Shown one piece after another: positions 1,391-61,250 of a stretch of 64,000 nucleotides of DNA (within the stretch, counting starts at the first letter, position 1; the number at the start of each line of letters is the position of its first letter). The translations under genes and the position numbers were made by a program. Origin of the DNA: Eledone cirrhosa (Eukaryota); contig OZ024742.1 in NCBI GenBank assembly GCA_964016885.1, positions 95,666,001 to 95,730,000 on the forward strand, written 5' to 3'. Below the pieces are notes generated by a model that saw only the letters and a list, made by a program, of their open reading frames with translations, did not search any database and was not told where the DNA came from.

Positions 1391-1581
1391 GGTATATATA
1401 TGTATATGTATGATTGTTTGGATGAAAGTACAAAAATCAATTAAAGGTGTTTATCATTTTTTTAATTTATAGGGAAATTCATATTTTCTAGCATATTTAT
1501 ACATCTACATATTAAAAATATGTAAATTTATATACACATTGTCGTAGTCTCAATTAATCACTATATATTTATATAGATATA

Positions 1582-1640
<59 letters not shown>

Positions 1641-2047
1641 ATACTTTGGGAGGGTCATGTTGCCAATAAGAAACACACGCACCAGTTGCTTTCACTTCAA
1701 TTTATTATATATTTATAAATTTACAAATCTACAAATTTATAAATTTCTGGTTGGTTGGTTGGTTCCACAACCAGATAGTTGTTTATATAGAGTCATAGTC
1801 CTTTCGTCACACACTCTGTGACCTCTTCAGTGACTGGGGATTCCTTTCTTTGTTTCTGTGCCTTTCCTTTCTTCTCTCCTACGCCATTTTGTTTCTGTGT
1901 GTGTGTTGTGTGCTCAGTTTACGCATGTGCCACATCCGGGTGTCTGTGTGTGTTTGTGTTCATTTATCTATTTGTTTATTTATTTATTTATTTACATGTT
2001 ATTGGTTGGTTGTTTGTTCTATGTGTGTGTGTGTTTTCATTTTGTCC

Positions 2048-2698
2048 TTAATTGTAAGTTGTGATGTTGCTGTCCCACTCATATTTTCTATTTAATTTTG
2101 GTTGTAATTCTTTTATGTTTATTGCCTCTGTAATTTGTCTAAACATTGCATCTTTTCTGTGTGTAGATTCTATTTTTATTTCTATGTTCTCTAATTTACC
2201 CTTGTGTTCTATCTTAGCATGTTGGTAGAGTACAGATGATTCTTTATTATCTTGAAGGTCTCGCCAGTGTTCATTTATCCGTTCCCCTATACTACGAGCT
2301 GTCTCACCTATGTACACTATATTTTTGTTTCTACATTGTCCTTCAGTACATCTTATGCTATACACTACATTTCTAGTTTTACAGTTAATATGGGGGCTTA
2401 TTTTACAGGTTATACATTTCTTATCTATACATGAGGGTCTTTGAAACGGGTATGTCTTGCTAATAAGTGTTTTTACGGAGGTACCTGGTCTTTCTACTAT
2501 CTTAATATTGAGTTTATATTTATTTAGGGCCCTTCTAAATTTGTAGGCTAGTTCGCCTCTAGGGGTTGTATCGATGAACATTACACTCTGGTATTTATTG
2601 CTATCATACCATGAGTTTATTCTATTGGCCTTGTTCCTAGTTCTTTCTATTCTATTCCAAAATTTGCTCCTATACAAGGGGCAGGTCCCATTTATGTC
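2048..2698 (-). CDS. PLE ORF C-terminus: Cys-rich linker plus GIY-YIG endonuclease (5'-truncated)
   Basis: Open frame CIDKKCITC...CKTRNVVYSIRC...YIGETARSIGERINEH...H...RQITEAINI...LNRKYEW. The predicted N-terminal 54 aa come from the inverted arm and are not genuine. Confidence 0.9.
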   Translation of the reverse strand, partial: DINGTCPLYRSKFWNRIERTRNKANRINSWYDSNKYQSVMFIDTTPRGELAYKFRRALNKYKLNIKIVERPGTSVKTLISKTYPFQRPSCIDKKCITCKISPHINCKTRNVVYSIRCTEGQCRNKNIVYIGETARSIGERINEHWRDLQDNKESSVLYQHAKIEHKGKLENIEIKIESTHRKDAMFRQITEAINIKELQPKLNRKYEWDSNITTYN

Positions 2699-2803
2699 CC
2701 CGGATGTGGCGCATGCGCAAACTGAGCACACAGCACACACACAGAAACAAAATGGCGTAGGACAGAAGAAAGGAAAGGCACAGAAACAAAGAAAGGAATC
2801 CCC

Positions 2804-2848
2804 AGTCACTGAAGAGGTCACAGAGTGTGTGACGAAAGGACTATGACT
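2804..2848 (+). ncRNA. Minimal type-I hammerhead ribozyme motif (mirror copy 1791-1835 on minus)
   Basis: AGTCA CTGAAGA G GTCACA gagtg TGTGAC GAAA ggac TA TGACT: stems I and II pair perfectly. Confidence 0.8.
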
Positions 2849-3034
2849 ATATATAAACAACTATCTGGTTGTGGAACCAGCCAACCAACCAGAAATTTAT
2901 AAATTTGTAGATTTGTAAATTTATAAATATATAATAAATTGAAGTGAAAGTAACTGGTGCGTGTGTTTCTTATTGGCAACATGACCCTCCCAAAGTATAA
3001 CAATATCGGTTTAAACACACGATTTCAGATAAAG

Positions 3035-3071
<37 letters not shown>

Positions 3072-3149
3072 AAAAAGAAGAAAAATGACCCCAGAAAATA
3101 TTTATGAAACATAGCAATAACAACAAAAGAAAAAATTAAACATAAATAT

Positions 3150-13350: not shown

Positions 13351-13986
13351 CAAGCAGTGGTACCTGGCTAAGGTATTTTGGAAGGCGGGCCGCCAACAGA
13401 CCTAATCGTGGACAAACTACATGCCTCGACAATATGTAAAGAAAATAAACCGAATACTCTGATGGCTGGACAATCTTTAAGATTTGCCTCGATGAAGCAG
13501 GAAAAATGCAGGTTTTCACCTAATGCGGACCCTAGGGGATCAAGAAAATTAATTTTTTTATGTGCATAATATGCCTTGAAATTTCGGGAAAATCGGCTCA
13601 AAAACGTAACGCCTCAAAAGAGCCCTAAAATACTGAAAAATTGAAGTTTTTCACCTAATGCGGGCCCTAGGCCATAAAATGTTGGATTTTCTTTAATCAC
13701 GGTATGAAGAAGAGACTGACTAATACATAGTTACACTTTCAAGGAAATCGCTCTGACGTAACGCCTCAAAAAACCCATAAAAAGCCGGAAAAAATGAAGT
13801 TTTTCACCTAATGCGGGCCCTAGGGGATCAAAAAGTTGAATTTTGTATGTGCATAACACTCTCTGAAACATAAGTAATACACATGTAAAGTTTAAAAAAA
13901 GTCGGTTGGGTACTTCTCGAGTTTTAGGGATTCAAACTCACAGATACACACACACAGACAGACATCCTCAGTTTTATATATATAGA
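13351..13986 (-). mobile_element. Non-autonomous Helitron
   Basis: On minus: 5' TCTATATATATAAAA...TGTCTGTCTG, 3' hairpin TACCT-tagcc-AGGTA then CTTG (CTAG variant); inserted between A and T with no TSD; three internal ~140 bp repeats containing TTTTCACCTAATGCGG.CCCTAGG. Confidence 0.8.
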
Positions 13987-14153
13987 TATTTCAAGGCTAC
14001 CAGAAAAACTCTGGTACGCTCTCATCAGATAAAATACAAAATTTGTTTTATAAATAGTGAAATACCCGATAAACCAGACCTTAACGGTTCAGGTTCCATG
14101 AACCGTTAAGGTCTGGTTTATCGGGTATGTCATTATTTATAAAACAAATTTTG

Positions 14154-14217
14154 TATTTTATCTGATGAGTGCGTACCAAAGTTTTTTTGGTACCCTTGAA
14201 ATATATATAATAAAATA
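14154..14217 (+). ncRNA. Type-I hammerhead ribozyme motif
   Basis: TATTTTAT CTGATGA gtgc GTACCAAA gttt TTTGGTAC cctt GAAA tatata TA ATAAAATA; 8-bp stem I, palindromic stem III. Confidence 0.75.
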
Positions 14218-37477: not shown

Positions 37478-38020
<543 letters not shown>

Positions 38021-38545
38021 TATATATAGTGTATTTTTCAATAAACTGTATGCTTAATTAAAAGCATTTTGAAGACCTTATGCTATTGTTTTAGAGTAGT
38101 GACAGACTCACTTACTTTAAATTTTCAGCAAACAGGGGAGATAAAGGTGACAGAGCTATGTTTCGTACTGATTGGTACTTATCAAAGCCAAGCACTCCAC
38201 CTGTTTGCTGAAAATCATGAATGTTTGATTCTTATAGAAATTCTAGTAATAATCAGGAACTGATTATACAGAGCGGTTGCCGGTCAAGCAGAAATTGAAA
38301 ATTAGAATTGGCACTCTGAAATAGTACTTGCCTTAGATAAGTACCAATCAGTACGAAACATAGCTCTGTCAGCTTTATCTCCCCTGTTTGCTGAAAAGTT
38401 AAAGTAAGTGAGTCTGTCACTACTCTAAAACAATAGCAAAAGGTCTTCAAAATGCTTTTAATTAAGCATACGGTGTATTGCAAAATACACTATATATACA
38501 TTCATATATATATATAGATATTTCAGAGCGGCAATTCTAATTATT
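38021..38545. repeat. Double fold-back element (A'-x-B-A-B')
   Basis: Inverted pairs 38021-38196/38323-38498 and 38300-38323/38519-38542. Confidence 0.85.
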
Positions 38546-38674
38546 TATATATATATATATATATATATAAATTTAAGAGAAATAAAAACACAACCAGGAA
38601 CTGGGTATATCGGAATATTGACGGAGTTAAACACTTCAACAACATGTGTACCTGTCTCTACCACACCAAATCGG

Positions 38675-38729
38675 ACTGCCTGAAGAGGTCACAGCCAAGG
38701 ATGGCTGTCACCGAAATATATATAGCAGT
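38675..38729 (+). ncRNA. Type-I hammerhead ribozyme motif in a ~220-bp TA-flanked insert (38570-38790)
   Basis: ACTGC CTGAAGA GGT c ACAGCCA agga TGGCTGT c ACC GAAA tatata TA GCAGT, followed by AATAAA. Confidence 0.88.
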
Positions 38730-38791
38730 ACACCTCTAATAAACGAAGCCAAATTTTAAATATTTGACTTAATTATTTTATTTTATAATAT

Positions 38792-53197: not shown

Positions 53198-56190
53198 CAG
53201 CTGCATTTATCTTGCTTTATGTTCATACGAGTTATCACCAAGTCACAACCAGTGACCTCAAGAGACAACAAGGTCCGCCATGTTCAAGAAAGAACATACA
53301 TACTCACACATGCATCTTTAGTGCTTAGACTTGTGATGTACTTATATTGACAGAAGCTTCCTTAGTATATGGGCAGTTCCCATTAGTACTATCTTTTGTA
53401 TTTCTCCTATACGCGGGTTTCCTGGGATTTGCGATAAGTAATCATTAGACCCCTTAGGTATCATTGCTAGAGCGCCTACAACCACTGGTATTGTTTTAGT
53501 TCTCAATTTCCACATTTTTCCAATTTCTATCTCCAGGTCCTTATACTTGCTCAATTTTTCAAATGTTTTTATAGATACATTCTTGTCTATTGGAACGGAC
53601 ATATCAATTAGCAGGCATAGCCTCTTTTTAAAGTCCTTCAATATTATATCAGGTCTATTTGCATCTATTTTTCGGTCTGTTTGGATGCTAAAGTTCCACA
53701 AGATTGAGATGTGATCTTTTTCAAGTATGGGAGGTGGTTGATGCTCCCACCAATTCTTTTGATGGGGCAGGTCAAAATGCTTACAATGTATGTATTGTGC
53801 AGCTCTGTCATGCCTGTTTATGTATTCGGTTGGAGCTATAGGACTGCACATTGAAATTATATGGTCAATGGTCTCTGGTTGTTTTTTACATACACGGCAT
53901 AATGGGCTACATCCATTTTTATTATGTTGGCTTGGTAATTTTTTGTTGGCAGACACTGATCTTGTGCTGATATAATCAGTCCTTCAGTCTCCGATTTCAG
54001 TCCAGAGGATGCCAACCACTGATGGGTTAAAGTTTTGTCAACATCAGGATTGTTAGCTCGTTCTAGGTATTTTCCATACAGAGGCTTTTCTTGCCATTTC
54101 TTAGCCAGTTTCTGTAGCAGTTCTTTCTTTGCAGTTACTTTTACCTGCTTTGCTTTTTCTGTGTTTTCCATTTCAGCAATAAATCGGACTTCTGAAATGT
54201 GTAGTCCATTACTGTATCTTTGTGCATCTGTTGTAATGGAGTATGATCTTTTGATGCTTTCATGTTTCAAAACGAGTTTGATCATCCAATCATGTGATTC
54301 CCTTAGATATGTAGATAATCCAATTGTTGCAGTTTTCAACGCAATGTCTAACTGGATTAACCCACGTCCTCCTTCTTTCCTAGGGAGATATATTCTATCT
54401 GTATCTGCCTTAGGGTGATGCATTCTGTGCATGGTTAAGAATTTTCGAATTTTTATATCGAGCCTACGGATCTCTGTGCTTGACCAGTTGATGACATTGT
54501 AACTGTAGGTTACTACTGGTATGGCAAGCGTGTTTATGGCATCGATCCTAATCCTTGCATTCAATTCCGTTCTTAAGATTGCTCTTACTCTGTGGTAACA
54601 TTCCTTCCTTATCCTTTCCCTCATTGTCGAGTGCTTGATTCCGTCTCCTTCACAAACACCTAGATATTTGTAAGTTTCCTCTTGATCAAGTTCTCTTATC
54701 ACATTCCCTCGATCAAGATTAATGTCTGAACTCTTCAGCAGCTTTCCTCTGGTGAACATTGCTTTGGCGCATTTATCTAGTCCAAGCTCCATTTTAATGT
54801 CATCACTGAACTGCTCAACAGTTGATAATAGCCCTTGCAATTGTTCATCATTTTTTGCAAATAGTTTCAGGTCATCCATGTAGAACAAGTGATTAATGGT
54901 TTTGTCATAGGCTTTATATCCATGTTTTGTTTCATTGAGCATTTTACTTAATGGTATGAGTGCGATGCAGAATAAAAGCGGTGATAAAGAGTCACCCTGA
55001 AAAATTCCACAATTAATATTAACTTCTCCAGCTTCCAGTGATTTTGTTTCACTATTCAAAAGGAGTGTCGTTTTCCATGTCTTCATACTGAATGACAAAA
55101 ACCTCCTGACAACGGGGGATATTTTGAAAATCTCTAAACATTTTTCAATCCAACTGTGTGGCAAACTATCGAATGCTTTTTTATAATCTATCCAAGCAAT
55201 TGATAGATTTTTGTGTCTATTATGACAATCTTCCAGTATCATTTTGTTAACCAAAAGCTGATCCTTACAGCCATATGAGCCTCGTTTACACCCTTTCTGC
55301 TCAATGGGAAATAGGTCATTTGTTACCAGGTGGTCATATGTATATTCAGTTAGGACTGATGTTAAAAAGTTATACATTGTGGTCAAGCAAGTTATCGGTC
55401 TGTAATTTTTGTAAAGTTTGTCTCATCATTCTTCGGAAGCAGGAATGTAATGCCGTTAACTAGCCATGATGGTATCTTTTCTGGCTCCTTAACTATTTCA
55501 TTGTAAAGTTGGGCTAACAGCTCATGAGACTCTGTGAAGGCATTTATCCAAAAATTTTGTATTTTGTCTTTTCCTGGGGATTTCCATTTGCTGGTTTTTC
55601 TTAGAGCCAAACGCAACTGTTCAACTGTTATATTTTCCCATATTTGTTCCTCAAGGTGAGCTGTATCTTTCATTTGTCTGTCTATCCATGGGGCATGTAT
55701 ATTATGAACTTTTTCTTCGGCCCAGATCTTTTCCCAGAATTCTTGCACTTCCTCCTTGGGTGGTATTGATTTAGCAGTTATTGTTGACTTACCAATTTTT
55801 CTGTAGAAGTTTCTTTGGTTGGTTTTGAACATATTATTGTCCTTATAGAATCTAGATCGTTTTTCAAAGCGCCTTATACGAGCAGCTTTGGCCGACACTT
55901 TTTGTTTGATTATTTCTATCAGCATGCCTATGTCACTTGTTGGTTTTATACTGTACTTTCTTTTCAATTTTCTAAGTTTATTTTGTTTAACATGTTCACC
56001 TACTTTATAGTTTTTTAAAATTTCTATGTCAGATCGGTGAAGGTTTATTTGGCGATTGATGTTCTCTTGCCAAGTAGATTTCTTGTAAGAATTCCTTTGA
56101 TTTTTCATCTTCACTCCACATAAGTGAGTGGTGACTTTAGCCGATGCATAATAGAGATGATTTAAATCAGTAATGTTTAGTTTGTTTGTG
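53198..56190 (-). mobile_element. R4/Dong-clade non-LTR retrotransposon (RT plus RLE), 5'-truncated, 2 frameshifts
   Basis: ORFs 55392-56190, 53857-55386 (EQKG, WIDYKKAFDS, GIFQGDSLSP, YMDDLKL) and 53342-53956 (CRVC..HIISMC, RHD, RPD..IDMSVP..K..KY); (TAA)n tail at 53179-53197. Confidence 0.95.
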
Positions 56191-56224
56191 ATGATAATGT
56201 TTATTATTATTGTTGTTGTTATTC

Positions 56225-57551
56225 CTTGAATCTCAGTCATTGATGTTGGTTAACTGGAAAGTCCGTTGGATTGAATATCAAGCCACTACCTGCAGCCTCA
56301 GATATTCAGGACGTATGGGAGGGTTCTTGCTGTTCCAAGCAATCATGCCTTTTGAAGCGTTCCAAAAAGCGTGAAGGGGCCGATTTTCTTTAACCATCCC
56401 TGGAAACTTTTGGAGATAGTCCCCAGTGCGCCTATGACAATCGGGATCACTTTGACTTCATGGCAGTTCCAAATCCTTTTCACCTCCCACTTTAGGTCCT
56501 GGTATCGGTTAATGTTCTCCCTCTCCTTCTCTTGCACTCTCGTGTCGAACGGGCAGGCCACATCCACAATCAGACACGATCTTTTTTCTTTGTCCACAAC
56601 CACCAGGTCAGGTCTATTGTGTTCCAGTTTTTTGTCCGTCTGTATCCTAAAATCCCACAGCACCTTCACCTGATTGTTCTCCATCACCGCCTCTGGCCTA
56701 TGCTCATACCATTTCTCAGAATGTGGTAAATTGTTTACTTTGCACAGGTGCCAGTGGATCACCCTGCCCATCACATCGTGTCTCCAGCCCTTATAGTGGG
56801 TCTGGGCTAGGTGTTTACACTCGGACACAATGTGAGCCACAGTCTCCTCTCTCTCTCCACAGATCCTGCACAGTGGGCTAGCCTCCTCCTTGTAAATATG
56901 GTGCTTCAACCACTTCGTTTTGAGGGCCTGCTCCTGCGCAGCCATTAGCATTCCTTCTGTAGCCTTTTTGAGGTCTCCTCTTCTCAACCAGTTCCATGTC
57001 TGTGGATCTCTAAATTCAGTTTTCTCAAAGAAGGTACTATGAAGGGATTTTCCCTTAAGGCTGCTCTTCCTCCTTGATGTTATTTCCTCCTTGGACATCC
57101 CCTGGCCTACTGTCCCCTCCTTCAGTACAGTTCTGAGCATTGGCTCCTTACTATAGGTCACGTATTTGTATAGGTTGTTTTTCTCCATCTGAACACAGTC
57201 CTCTATGCTGATAAGACCTCTTCCACCCTCAGATCTCCTTAGGTAGAGTCTATCGACATCACTCCTCTTGTGGAACATGTTGTAGATAGTCAATAGCTTC
57301 CTAGTCTTCCTATCCATTTCTTTTTGTTCAGCAACATTCCATCTCAGAATTCCCGCACTGTACCTAATAATAGACACAGCTCGGGAATTTACTGCGCTTA
57401 TGGCATTTCTGCTGTTCAGATGTGACTTCAATACGCTCCTTACTCTCCGAATGTATTCAGTTCTTAACAATTCCTTCATTTTTTTGTTCTTTATGCCATC
57501 AGCCTCCAGAACGCCCAAATACTTGTATCCTTCCTCAGAGTCAATTTCCAT
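56225..57551 (-). mobile_element. Second R4/Dong family, 3' 1.3 kb (thumb plus RLE)
   Basis: YKYLG...CRICGEREETVAHIVSEC...RHD...WDFRIQTD..RPDLVV..VDVACP; (TAA)n-like tracts on both sides. Confidence 0.93.
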
Positions 57552-57609
57552 TTTATTATTATTATTATTATTATTGTTATTATTATTGTTATTATTATTA
57601 TTGTTTTTA

Positions 57610-57676
<67 letters not shown>

Positions 57677-58264
57677 TATGTGTGTGTGTGTGTGTGTGTG
57701 TTTCATTTGGGAGAACTGTTTCATTTGGGAGAAATCATCAGGAAGCTTACTTACTGTGGCTACCCCCGTTTGAACCTAGGATAAACTTATATATACATCT
57801 TCATCATCATCATCATCATCATGATTTTCCACATCACCATTTAATGTCCATTTTTCTATTTTCCATATTAGCATGGGTTAGACGAGTTGTCCCATTGTGA
57901 GACAATCAGAGTATAGCTAATGATATGCAATCATCACTACAGCATCTGGCACTGGTAAGGCATCATCAGATATTAACACTACCATAACAGCTTTATTAAC
58001 ATTAATTCAAACATAGAAAATGTGTTACATTATATCACAATTGTAACACTGCATATATATATGACTGACATGGAGTGCATTTACCTGCTTTCAATTGTTT
58101 ATCATTGAGATATTGCAATGTGACTCTCATGGATAAGCAAGTCACTAATTAACCATATATATATAGGGAAAGATTCAGGTCCCTGATGGCTGAGCTCCGG
58201 TCATTTTGATATCGAGTACTCTGGTGCGTTATGGTCCACCTTGTTCCTTACCACACTTTCTTTG

Positions 58265-58665: not shown

Positions 58666-58712
58666 TAAATAGTGAGTCTTGTTACTCAGGAGTAACGAGA
58701 CTCACTATTTAT
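58666..58712. repeat. Short hairpin with ~22-bp arms abutting (TA)n
   Basis: TAAATAGTGAGTCTTGTTACTC...GAGTAACGAGACTCACTATTTA. Confidence 0.8.
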
Positions 58713-58717
58713 ATATA

Positions 58718-58794
<77 letters not shown>

Positions 58795-58803
<9 letters not shown>

Positions 58804-59435
58804 GACGTAAAATAAGGAAATTTTAAAAATTAAAAATCAACTTACTTACTAAAATTTTCACTCCAACTAATTAGTTTCTGTAAGGGGATAAATATAGTTA
58901 CATAATATAACTATAGAGAATTCCTTACGTCATCAGGGAGTTTATTCTCAGCTAAGTTCCCAGGCGATGCGCGGACACTAGGAACCCATATAAAAATAAT
59001 AATAATTCAGTGGATGGAACAAAGCTAGCGAGGACTAAATTCCGGAGCACTGAAATAATTCACTGCCTCTGGTCAGTGGCAAATTCTAAAGAATCAATCA
59101 CGTGACACTGAGGTTAATCAGTTAGGAGCGGGGTGGTATTATGAATCAGCAGTAAATTTTGGCAAGTTTTGCTCAACATATGTGTACATATGTTCACCTA
59201 TGCTAGCAAATATATATGTTATGTCTTAGTACCTTTGGGGTTCTATGCAGGGAGATGCAGAACAATTAGTTGGAGTGAAAATTTTAGTAAGTTGATTTTT
59301 AATTTTTTAAATTTCCTTATTTTACGTCTTTCATATAAATATTCTGCATCCCCCTGCATAGAACCACAAAGGTACTAAGACATAACATATATATTTGCTA
59401 GCATAGGTGAACATCTGTACACATATGTTGGCAAA
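58795..59435. mobile_element. Double fold-back non-coding hammerhead element (A'-x-B-A-B')
   Basis: Inverted pairs 58795-58880/59258-59337 and 59174-59262/59342-59430. Confidence 0.88.
58860..58941 (-). ncRNA. Type-I hammerhead ribozyme motif
   Basis: ACTCC CTGATGA c GTAAGG...TATAGTTA loop TAACTATA...CCTTAC a GAAA ctaattag TT GGAGT; palindromic stem III. Confidence 0.8.
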
Positions 59436-59452
59436 TATACTAATTCTCTCTT

Positions 59453-59548
<96 letters not shown>

Positions 59549-59636: not shown

Positions 59637-59852
59637 TATAAACATGAGTATATCAGTAGTTGCATGCTCCATCGAGCTGCGTCACCAGAACAAGGCAATA
59701 TATTTACATGTCTAGACATATTGATATATTTGTCAACGAAATATATATATATATATGAAAATGTTACCCACTCTACTACCCAAAGTATCGAGTACTCTGG
59801 TGCGTTATGGTCCACCTGGTTCCTTACCACATTTCCTTTGTTATATATATAT

Positions 59853-61250
59853 ATATTGTTATACTTGGGGAGGACCATATTTGTGTAATATTGCCAGAAT
59901 TAATAACAGAACACACTCACTGTTTCGTTGGTTTTCGCTTTTCGCTTCTGTGTCATTTATATCGGTAACCTAATTTACTCGGTCCTCAATGTTGCCATTG
60001 ACTGACCGACGGTCAAAAATAATACAGATACAATATAGACACAAACACATATATATAGTTTATCATAAATCTTTCGTTGCACATCTGCAGCATCGTCAGT
60101 GTTGCTATCGTTTCCTCCCGTTGTATTGTATGTCTACGCCATTTTTATTCAGTCTGTCTATATATTTATTTATTTATTTGCTTGTTTGTTTATTTTATTT
60201 TGTCTTCTTTGCGCATGCGTTTGCGTGTGTGTATAGTGTTTTGTTTGATGTGTGATGTGTGTTCATGATTGGGTGACTAGTGTGTGTTTATGTGCTTGTG
60301 TATGTATTTATTTATTTATTTATTCATTTATTTTATTTTATTTACTTATTTATACTTCTCTTAGGTCAGTGTTGTTTGTTTCGGTGTTGTTGTTATTCCA
60401 TTCATTCTTTCTGTTTAGTCTCGGTCTTCTAAGTTCTATCTCGCTGGCCTCTCTGATTTGCCTATCTGCTGGGTCATTTCTATGTTTAGATATTATTCTA
60501 ATTTCTATGTTGTCTATGTTACCGTCATGTTGTTGTCTGGCATGTTCGTATAGTACTGAGCCGTTTTTTCGTCCTTTTAGTTTCCCCAGTGTTGGTCTAT
60601 CCTTTCACCTATGCTACGAGCTGTCTCACCTATGTATGTTGTTGTCATGTTTCTGCAAGTACCCTCTGTACATCTTATGCAACGTTTCTAGTTTTACAGT
60701 TTATCCGGGGGTTTACCTTACATATGATACATTTCCTATTGGTACAGTGGGTTTTCTTAAAAGGGTAGGTTTTGCTGATCATGAACACACATCACACATC
60801 AAACAAAACACTATACACACACGCAAACGCATGCGCAAAGAAGACAAAATAAAATAAACAAACAAGCAAATAAATAAATAAATATATAGACAGACTGAAT
60901 AAAAATGGCGTAGACATACAATACAACGGGAGGAAACGATAGCACCACTGACGATATTGCAGATGTGCAACGAAAGATTTATGATGAACTATATATATGT
61001 GTTTGTGTCTATATTGTATCTGTATTATTTTTGACCGTTGGTCAGTCAATGGCAACATTGAGGACCGAGTAAATTAGGTTACCGATATAAAAGACACAGA
61101 AGCGAAAAGCGAAAACCAACGAAACAGTGAGTGTGTTCTGTTATTAATTCTGGCAATATTACACAAATATGACCCTCCCCAAGTATAACAATATTTGCTT
61201 CGACACACAATTTCATATAAAAAACCTCGCAAAATTAATTCATCGCCGTT
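59853..61250 (-). mobile_element. Truncated PLE with inverted pLTRs, relative of 1633-3036
   Basis: Arms 59853-60269 and 60778-61194; broken GIY-YIG at 60385-60777 (YIGETARSIGERIDQHW...RQIREASEI...LNRKNEW); shared terminus CCCTCCC.AAGTATAACAATAT. Confidence 0.9.
60945..60985 (+). ncRNA. Minimal hammerhead motif (mirror copy ~60062-60102 on minus)
   Basis: CA CTGACGA t(a/g)TTGCA gatg TGCAAc GAAA gatt TA TG; short stem I. Confidence 0.6.

Follow-up and report, generated by a model that had tools for sequence, protein, structure and literature searches.

By its sequence, the segment 58795–59449 of the window (the whole 64,000-nt stretch of Eledone cirrhosa contig OZ024742.1 that was analysed) represents a two-armed insertion, with its arms head to head, of a 538-nt non-coding repeat bearing a predicted hammerhead ribozyme. 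The locus belongs to a repeat family with a few thousand members rather than being a circle captured on its own. Insertions of this kind were probably moved in trans by a Penelope-like reverse transcriptase (RT)/endonuclease, via priming at two sites on a multimeric RNA. The class and the layout are already known: it is a non-autonomous, Penelope-type, retrozyme-like family.

Anatomy of the Locus

The insertion lies in AT-rich, microsatellite-filled sequence of a 3.0-Gb genome. Unit positions (u) are counted from the first base past the predicted cut (u1), the natural 538-nt unit being the reference. A (TA)n target tract (58722–58799), the last bases of which overlap the E1 end of the element (CATATA), is followed by the left arm on the minus strand (58795–59268; u69–u538, then u1–u70) and by the right arm on the plus strand (59264–59449), the two sharing a 5-nt overlap, AATTA, at the inversion junction (59264–59268). 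A (CT)n tract of about 32 units then extends from the CTCT seed at E2 (59446–59509, plus strand), and another (TA)n target tract (59510–59545) closes the right flank. A near-perfect short hairpin with arms of about 21 bp (58668–58710), possibly another mini insertion, is located just left of the first TA tract.

The left arm is ordered B′, x′, hammerhead, A, with its 3′ end at site E1; the right arm comprises the 3′ half of stem III, A and then B, with a predicted cut site at 59271/59272 and its 3′ end at site E2, so the locus is a plain mixed-end case. This opposition of a minus and a plus arm was part of the original prediction, and it is borne out by the self-comparison of the window (inverted matches of 58790–58880 with 59258–59342 and of 59168–59268 with 59336–59435) and by the alignment to the unit, which moves the right end of the insertion from 59435, as first proposed, to 59449. 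Relative to the natural unit, the left arm has lost 44 nt near 59178 (in B′) and 22 nt near 59144 (in x′), and the supposed monomer of ~470 nt is merely this shortened arm. The 44-nt deletion takes out the E2 site, which the right arm retains. The “tail” between E1 and E2 (59338–59449, plus strand; about 112 nt in the unit alignment) is found at the 3′ end of the right arm only.

The AATTA overlap is part of the palindrome of stem III and precedes the predicted cut by 3 nt. The CAGAA previously regarded as the junction microhomology (59258–59262) is left-arm sequence and only extends an imperfect match, the perfect overlap being AATTA. The junctions of 27 simple loci of the family comprise 16 with an overlap of 1–9 nt, 4 with neither overlap nor gap and 7 with a small gap. 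Since 5′ ends of the main subfamily are not enriched at −15 to +2 of the cut site (3/65 and 2/54, with about 2 expected), the position of the junction at the ribozyme in the locus under study is probably due to chance. In the sister subfamily, 9 of 43 5′ ends occur in this interval (L142–L171), three of them exactly at the predicted cut, against 1.5 expected for an interval chosen after looking at the data.

It is hardly credible that the inversion arose by misassembly or when a tandem copy was later rearranged. The microsatellite flanks would be in line with such an origin, as would the fact that no read or contig from four sequencing runs spans the inversion junction of 58795–59449. However, several substitutions and indels distinguish the two arms, identical ends are seen at dozens of loci whose junctions vary, and raw reads of another individual, few as they are, show two other opposite-strand joints of the family.

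The Repeat Family and Its Affinities

A genome search with the element returned 3,018 first-look candidates, of which 40 were scored, and a 32-mer spanning the cut site has 1,832 exact genomic matches (957 + 875; control 0). Head-to-tail copies give a natural unit of 534–541 nt with the order cut site, A, B, x, ribozyme, B joining x directly in the tandem copies. Hence, the succession of A and B, earlier called permuted, is the native order. The 3′ ends lie at two constant positions. A sister subfamily (77% identical, 524-nt unit, 2,560 candidates) exhibits the same anatomy. The natural dimer contains no stop-free frame longer than 52 aa and no ATG-started frame longer than 29 aa on either strand, in accordance with the earlier statement that there is no ORF; the single frame encoding RT and GIY-YIG domains, typical of an autonomous endonuclease-bearing (EN+) Penelope-like element (PLE), is absent from it. 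A tRNA-derived SINE was considered and rejected: ARAGORN predicted 0 genes in three loci, and there was no Rfam tRNA match on the element.

The family displays several of the features expected from a non-autonomous PLE derivative. Its arms are 30–1,338 nt long with scattered 5′ ends, i.e., they represent partial tandems with variable 5′ truncation. An adjoining inverted 5′-truncated copy is documented by 37 two-armed insertions in 58 regions sampled in positional order, TA tracts adjoin nearly all listed E1 and E2 ends, in line with an AT-rich or (TA)n target, and the tail is one-ended and bounded by two start sites, although its length of about 114 nt exceeds the published 30–40 bp. One hallmark of a non-LTR retrozyme is present as well, namely non-coding tandem units that each bear a type I hammerhead motif, here with one non-canonical extra A.

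Compared with the EN-bearing PLE insertions described in PMC3846280, PMC8557442 and PMC11167929, the family shares partial tandems, an inverted 5′-truncated copy, a one-ended tail, a hammerhead near the 3′ end, TA-repeat targets and two fixed 3′ ends. It differs from what these accounts describe by the lack of an ORF, the tail of about 114 nt, the frequent CT tract at E2, the TA-like start sites and the fact that no coding partner was identified. With animal non-LTR retrozymes (PMC7229834; bioRxiv 10.64898/2026.07.22.740005), it has in common a non-coding AT-rich tandem unit, a type I hammerhead and the occurrence of monomers, dimers and a long array; these retrozymes are proposed there to be non-autonomous PLE derivatives. 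The unit exceeds the 150–450 bp given in the 2020 paper (PMC7229834) and lies within the 51–972 bp of the 2026 preprint. In contrast to these retrozymes, most copies here are two-armed insertions.

The long array belongs to the sister subfamily: at least 15 units occupy about 94,665,900–94,674,330 of contig C1 (L230:2927–9901 plus L231:1–2334). Its unit variants are hierarchical (62 shared, 68 private), which argues for growth by duplication and rules out a rolling-circle product; such an array could supply linear multimers. An inverted E1 arm is situated at one end of the array, and a higher-order variant pattern of 3–4 units is discernible.

A search for an autonomous partner among 50 GIY-YIG loci (30 top and 20 long-ORF loci of 10,595 first-look candidates) revealed none with the unit as its own terminal repeat; two matches turned out to be separate insertions of the family (L129) and of the sister subfamily (L108). 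Likewise, no continuation is shared among 26 free 5′ flanks, one of which is inside an unrelated PLE. This blank is not unusual, since terminal-repeat homology is reported for only 24 of 57 frog retrozyme families in the preprint by Li et al. (bioRxiv 10.64898/2026.07.22.740005). The original prediction was to fall if the unit proved to be part of a coding PLE pLTR; literally, this is not the case, as no partner was found, but the architecture is that of Penelope-like insertions. Several coding PLE families among the GIY-YIG loci carry their own hammerheads. Locus L121 (3809–6622, minus strand) has a 938-codon open frame of a Penelope-like RT plus GIY-YIG family with a U3–A8 hammerhead nearby, and several related families are present.

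The Predicted Hammerhead

The type I hammerhead motif of the left arm (58941–58860, minus strand; predicted GUU cut between 58865 and 58864) is composed of stem I (ACUCC/GGAGU), the core CUGAUGA, an extra C before G10.1, a long stem II, an extra A before G12 and the palindromic stem III ACUAAUUAGU. Accordingly, the “full hammerhead” proposed earlier holds in the sense of a complete type I motif, but its core departs in part from the canonical one: C11.1 and G12 are separated by the extra A, and the triplet is GUU. An Rfam scan of the window detected no hammerhead family, only hairpin and microsatellite noise.

Among 159 copies of the motif, the core reads CTGATGA in 141 and a variant of it in 3, with none found in 15. 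Stem II covaries across the same copies: pair 2 is TA in 90, AT in 35 and CG in 18, and pair 5 is GC in 95 and TA in 43. In 19 chosen variants, 93.5% of stem II cells are paired, and both partners vary in 8 of 23 pairs; this is above shuffles and slid controls, albeit inflated by relatedness. The extra A is conserved, C...A flanking stem II in 141 of 144 scored copies. A single motif is predicted to fold into a non-ribozyme shape, and two copies into a double-hammerhead topology (−49.2 vs. 2 × −19.8 kcal/mol). The motif may be an active ribozyme. PLE-type hammerheads as presented in PMC4209133 are similar in the extra base between positions 9 and 10.1, the G10.1–C11.1 pair, the length of helix II and a palindromic helix III suited for dimers; the conserved extra A before G12 is not known to be among the features described there, and the triplet of the family, GUU, is a further difference.

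Two Fixed 3′ Ends and Their Mixed Pairing

The arms end at one of two sites of the unit, E1 (u66–70, CTTTCATATA) or E2 (u182–186, TAATTCTCTATAT), spaced by about 114 nt and both with TA repeats next to them. The main sample consisted of 58 regions taken as the first pattern matches on contig C1 by position, against best-hit bias, a choice that disfavors arms starting exactly at the cut site. Repeat records of one locus (20/60, 2/30 and 2/30), the segmental duplicates L042, L047 and L222, and L228, the insertion of which is cut by the region edge, were left out of all counts given here, and one C1 match was already represented by L025. In this position-ordered set, 93 of 105 arms have a standard end (47 E1, 46 E2) and 12 end elsewhere. 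The head-to-head insertions combine E1 with E2 in 31 of 37 cases and matching ends in none, the remaining 6 having a non-standard end. A 31/31 score among the standard-ended loci corresponds to p = 5e-10 under a simple null of 0.5, with the end classes of several complex loci, including 3 of the 31 mixed ones, called by eye.

The pattern recurs elsewhere. In the best-hit sets, the 25 two-armed loci of the main subfamily comprised 22 mixed, 1 matching and 2 non-standard cases, and the 14 of the sister subfamily 11, 0 and 3, respectively. The 26 independent two-armed loci of a second non-coding family, represented at 38014–38542 (see below), were divided into 22 mixed, 1 matching and 3 non-standard. 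When four samples are pooled, 86 of 88 standard-ended two-armed loci are mixed; the exceptions are one E1+E1 and one E2+E2 locus. The wide E1–E2 spacing makes the mixed-end rule easy to count, hence the value of the family as a dataset. The counts bear on the formation of Penelope inverted repeats, a step left open in the accounts of PMC8557442, PMC11167929 and PMC3846280. A search of open-access main texts brought up neither a tally of mixed against matching ends nor a comparably long tail or a reiteration of CT.

Family variants are more often common to the two arms of an insertion (18 shared vs. 36 unshared, and 11 vs. 6) than to different loci (5% and 9% shared), which indicates that both arms stem from one source element. 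At the same time, the E1 arm outreaches the E2 arm on the 5′ side in 14 of 26 simple loci, and therefore neither arm copies the other. The latter result bears on the possibility that a single cDNA or antisense transcript folds back and self-primes the inverted arm, as in the self-priming model for head-to-head PLE repeats (Arkhipova et al. 2013, PMC3846280). Junctions that are mirror-symmetric in unit coordinates, e.g., in L010, L072, L211 and L212, would fit such an origin. Still, most junctions link distant unit positions, 14 of the 26 loci are non-nested, and so are the arms of 58795–59449, where the left one has x and the right one has B after A together with the 44 nt missing on the left. 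Self-priming seems quite improbable in general, and its simple form is contradicted by the arm sequences of the latter locus.

Proposed Mechanism of Insertion

The mixed E1+E2 ends, the non-nested arms and the short junction overlaps argue for two primings; this is the part of the original prediction, a circular or tandem ribozyme RNA copied from both target strands, that fits the data with respect to a tandem RNA and both strands. In the scheme that we favor, and for which we infer the enzyme, the priming chemistry and the form of the template, a Penelope-like RT/endonuclease would nick both strands of a TA repeat. One cDNA would be primed at E1 and a second one at E2, on opposite target strands, off the multimeric RNA of the element. 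At each site, 4–5 nt (AUAU) could pair with the end of the TA repeat, a match that is seen in the sequence and presumably serves the primer. Both cDNAs would run toward the 5′ end of the RNA for variable lengths and be joined via a few common bases (AATTA at 59264–59268), yielding one tailed and one tailless arm and only resembling a permuted monomer.

Published observations on PLEs are compatible with this sequence of events. An inverted 5′-truncated copy together with a tail of 30–40 bp on one end is reported by Craig et al. (2021, PMC8557442), and the same layout is described by Arkhipova et al. (2013, PMC3846280). According to Frangieh et al. (2024, PMC11167929), the PLE protein, a predicted dimer, cuts and extends both target strands, and reverse transcription starts at two internal sites bounding the tail. 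The coding Penelope stubs of the window share the one-tailed layout with the insertion at 58795–59449.

Several findings count against two-site priming. These are the missing partner and the lack of a common flank continuation, the length of the tail and the two loci with matching ends, along with the simplicity of the null and the ends called by eye. The start sites studied by Frangieh et al. (PMC11167929) are described as lacking homology with the cut DNA and as not differing between the strands, whereas both are TA-like here. A same-unit start of both arms is unsupported by the comparison of the arms in and out of register, which did not differ (2.03% vs. 1.84% mismatch, p = 0.54).

The wide overlap of the arms is a further difficulty. 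In the twin priming of L1 elements, the second target strand primes the inverted 5′ part, which is joined through microhomology, and a one-template version of it would not give widely overlapping arms without strand displacement, two RNAs or different units. The family would resemble L1 in second-strand priming and microhomology; it differs in that each of the two sites is internal and constant in position, and in that the overlap of the arms can reach a unit or more.

As to the template, a monomer circularized by hammerhead cleavage and ligation, with the RT rolling round it, would be compatible with two-site priming; circles have been proposed for PLEs (Cervera and de la Peña 2014, PMC4209133), and circRNAs are reported for animal retrozymes (PMC7229834). 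In favor of it, 39 of 105 arms are longer than one unit and continue across the cut site, stem II is maintained by compensatory changes, and the units within an insertion resemble each other to much the same degree whether compared in or out of register. Nevertheless, arms longer than a unit are explained by a circle or a tandem transcript alike, only 3 of 105 exceed two units, and linear multimers could come from the duplicated genomic array. The left arm lacks 44 nt present in the right one, the motif contains the extra A before G12 and, on its own, is predicted to adopt a non-ribozyme fold, and ribozyme mutants of the anole element insert normally, uncut RNA being the main substrate as reported in PMC11167929. 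A circular template is, overall, unlikely. The notions of a captured ~470-nt circular monomer and of its permutation do not fit the data: the unit measures 538 nt, the 3′ ends lie at two constant sites, the array of 15 or more units could supply linear multimers, and junctions at the ribozyme show no enrichment in the main subfamily.

The CT Tract at E2

In the position-ordered set, 26 of 33 terminal E2 ends carry at least 4 CT units, and 45 internal sites have at most 3; in the best-hit set, the tract is expanded at 21 of 27 terminal E2 ends, with 5 internal sites reassigned. The tract likely originates from slippage during priming. Alternatively, it could be derived from the target or result from fast later growth; copies with nearly identical arms carry long CT tracts, and tract length showed no sign of growth with age, if not conclusively, when compared with arm divergence (rho −0.30, p = 0.19, n = 20). 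A broader proposal, which we regard as tentative and somewhat short of probable, is that Penelope-type integration is asymmetric by rule: one complex would prime E1 on one target strand and E2 on the other, leaving matching ends very rare, and the RT at E2 would stutter on a CUCU template adding (CT)n, a telomerase-like reiteration seeding compound microsatellites. The CT tracts may show repeat addition by a telomerase-related RT, and the 114-nt spacing with the CT tag makes the family a good substrate for testing asymmetric priming and CT stutter.

Related Elements in the Window

The layout noted earlier at 38021 is indeed the same: 38014–38542, the right arm reaching 38542, is a two-armed insertion of an unrelated non-coding family (321-nt unit, hammerhead with a U3–A8 core variant, ends about 25 nt apart, 2,279 candidates). 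Just right of it, a hammerhead-bearing stub with a CTGAAGA core occupies 38660–38730. A 5′-truncated coding PLE stub at about 1568–3073 has a GIY-YIG match with E = 3e-4, below the Pfam cut-off, and another one at 59843–61249 is 73% alike over part of the 1635–3038 frame; both contain GIY-YIG remnants and hammerhead cores, and of their inverted arms one is tailed (about 33 and 56 nt). The 244-nt palindrome at 13972–14215, which lies between TA tracts and has a CTGATGA core on each strand, is likely a further two-armed stub. Finally, a broken non-LTR retrotransposon is located at 53345–57734 on the minus strand (RVT_1 match, E = 4.5e-27), the end of which we take to resemble a restriction-like endonuclease.
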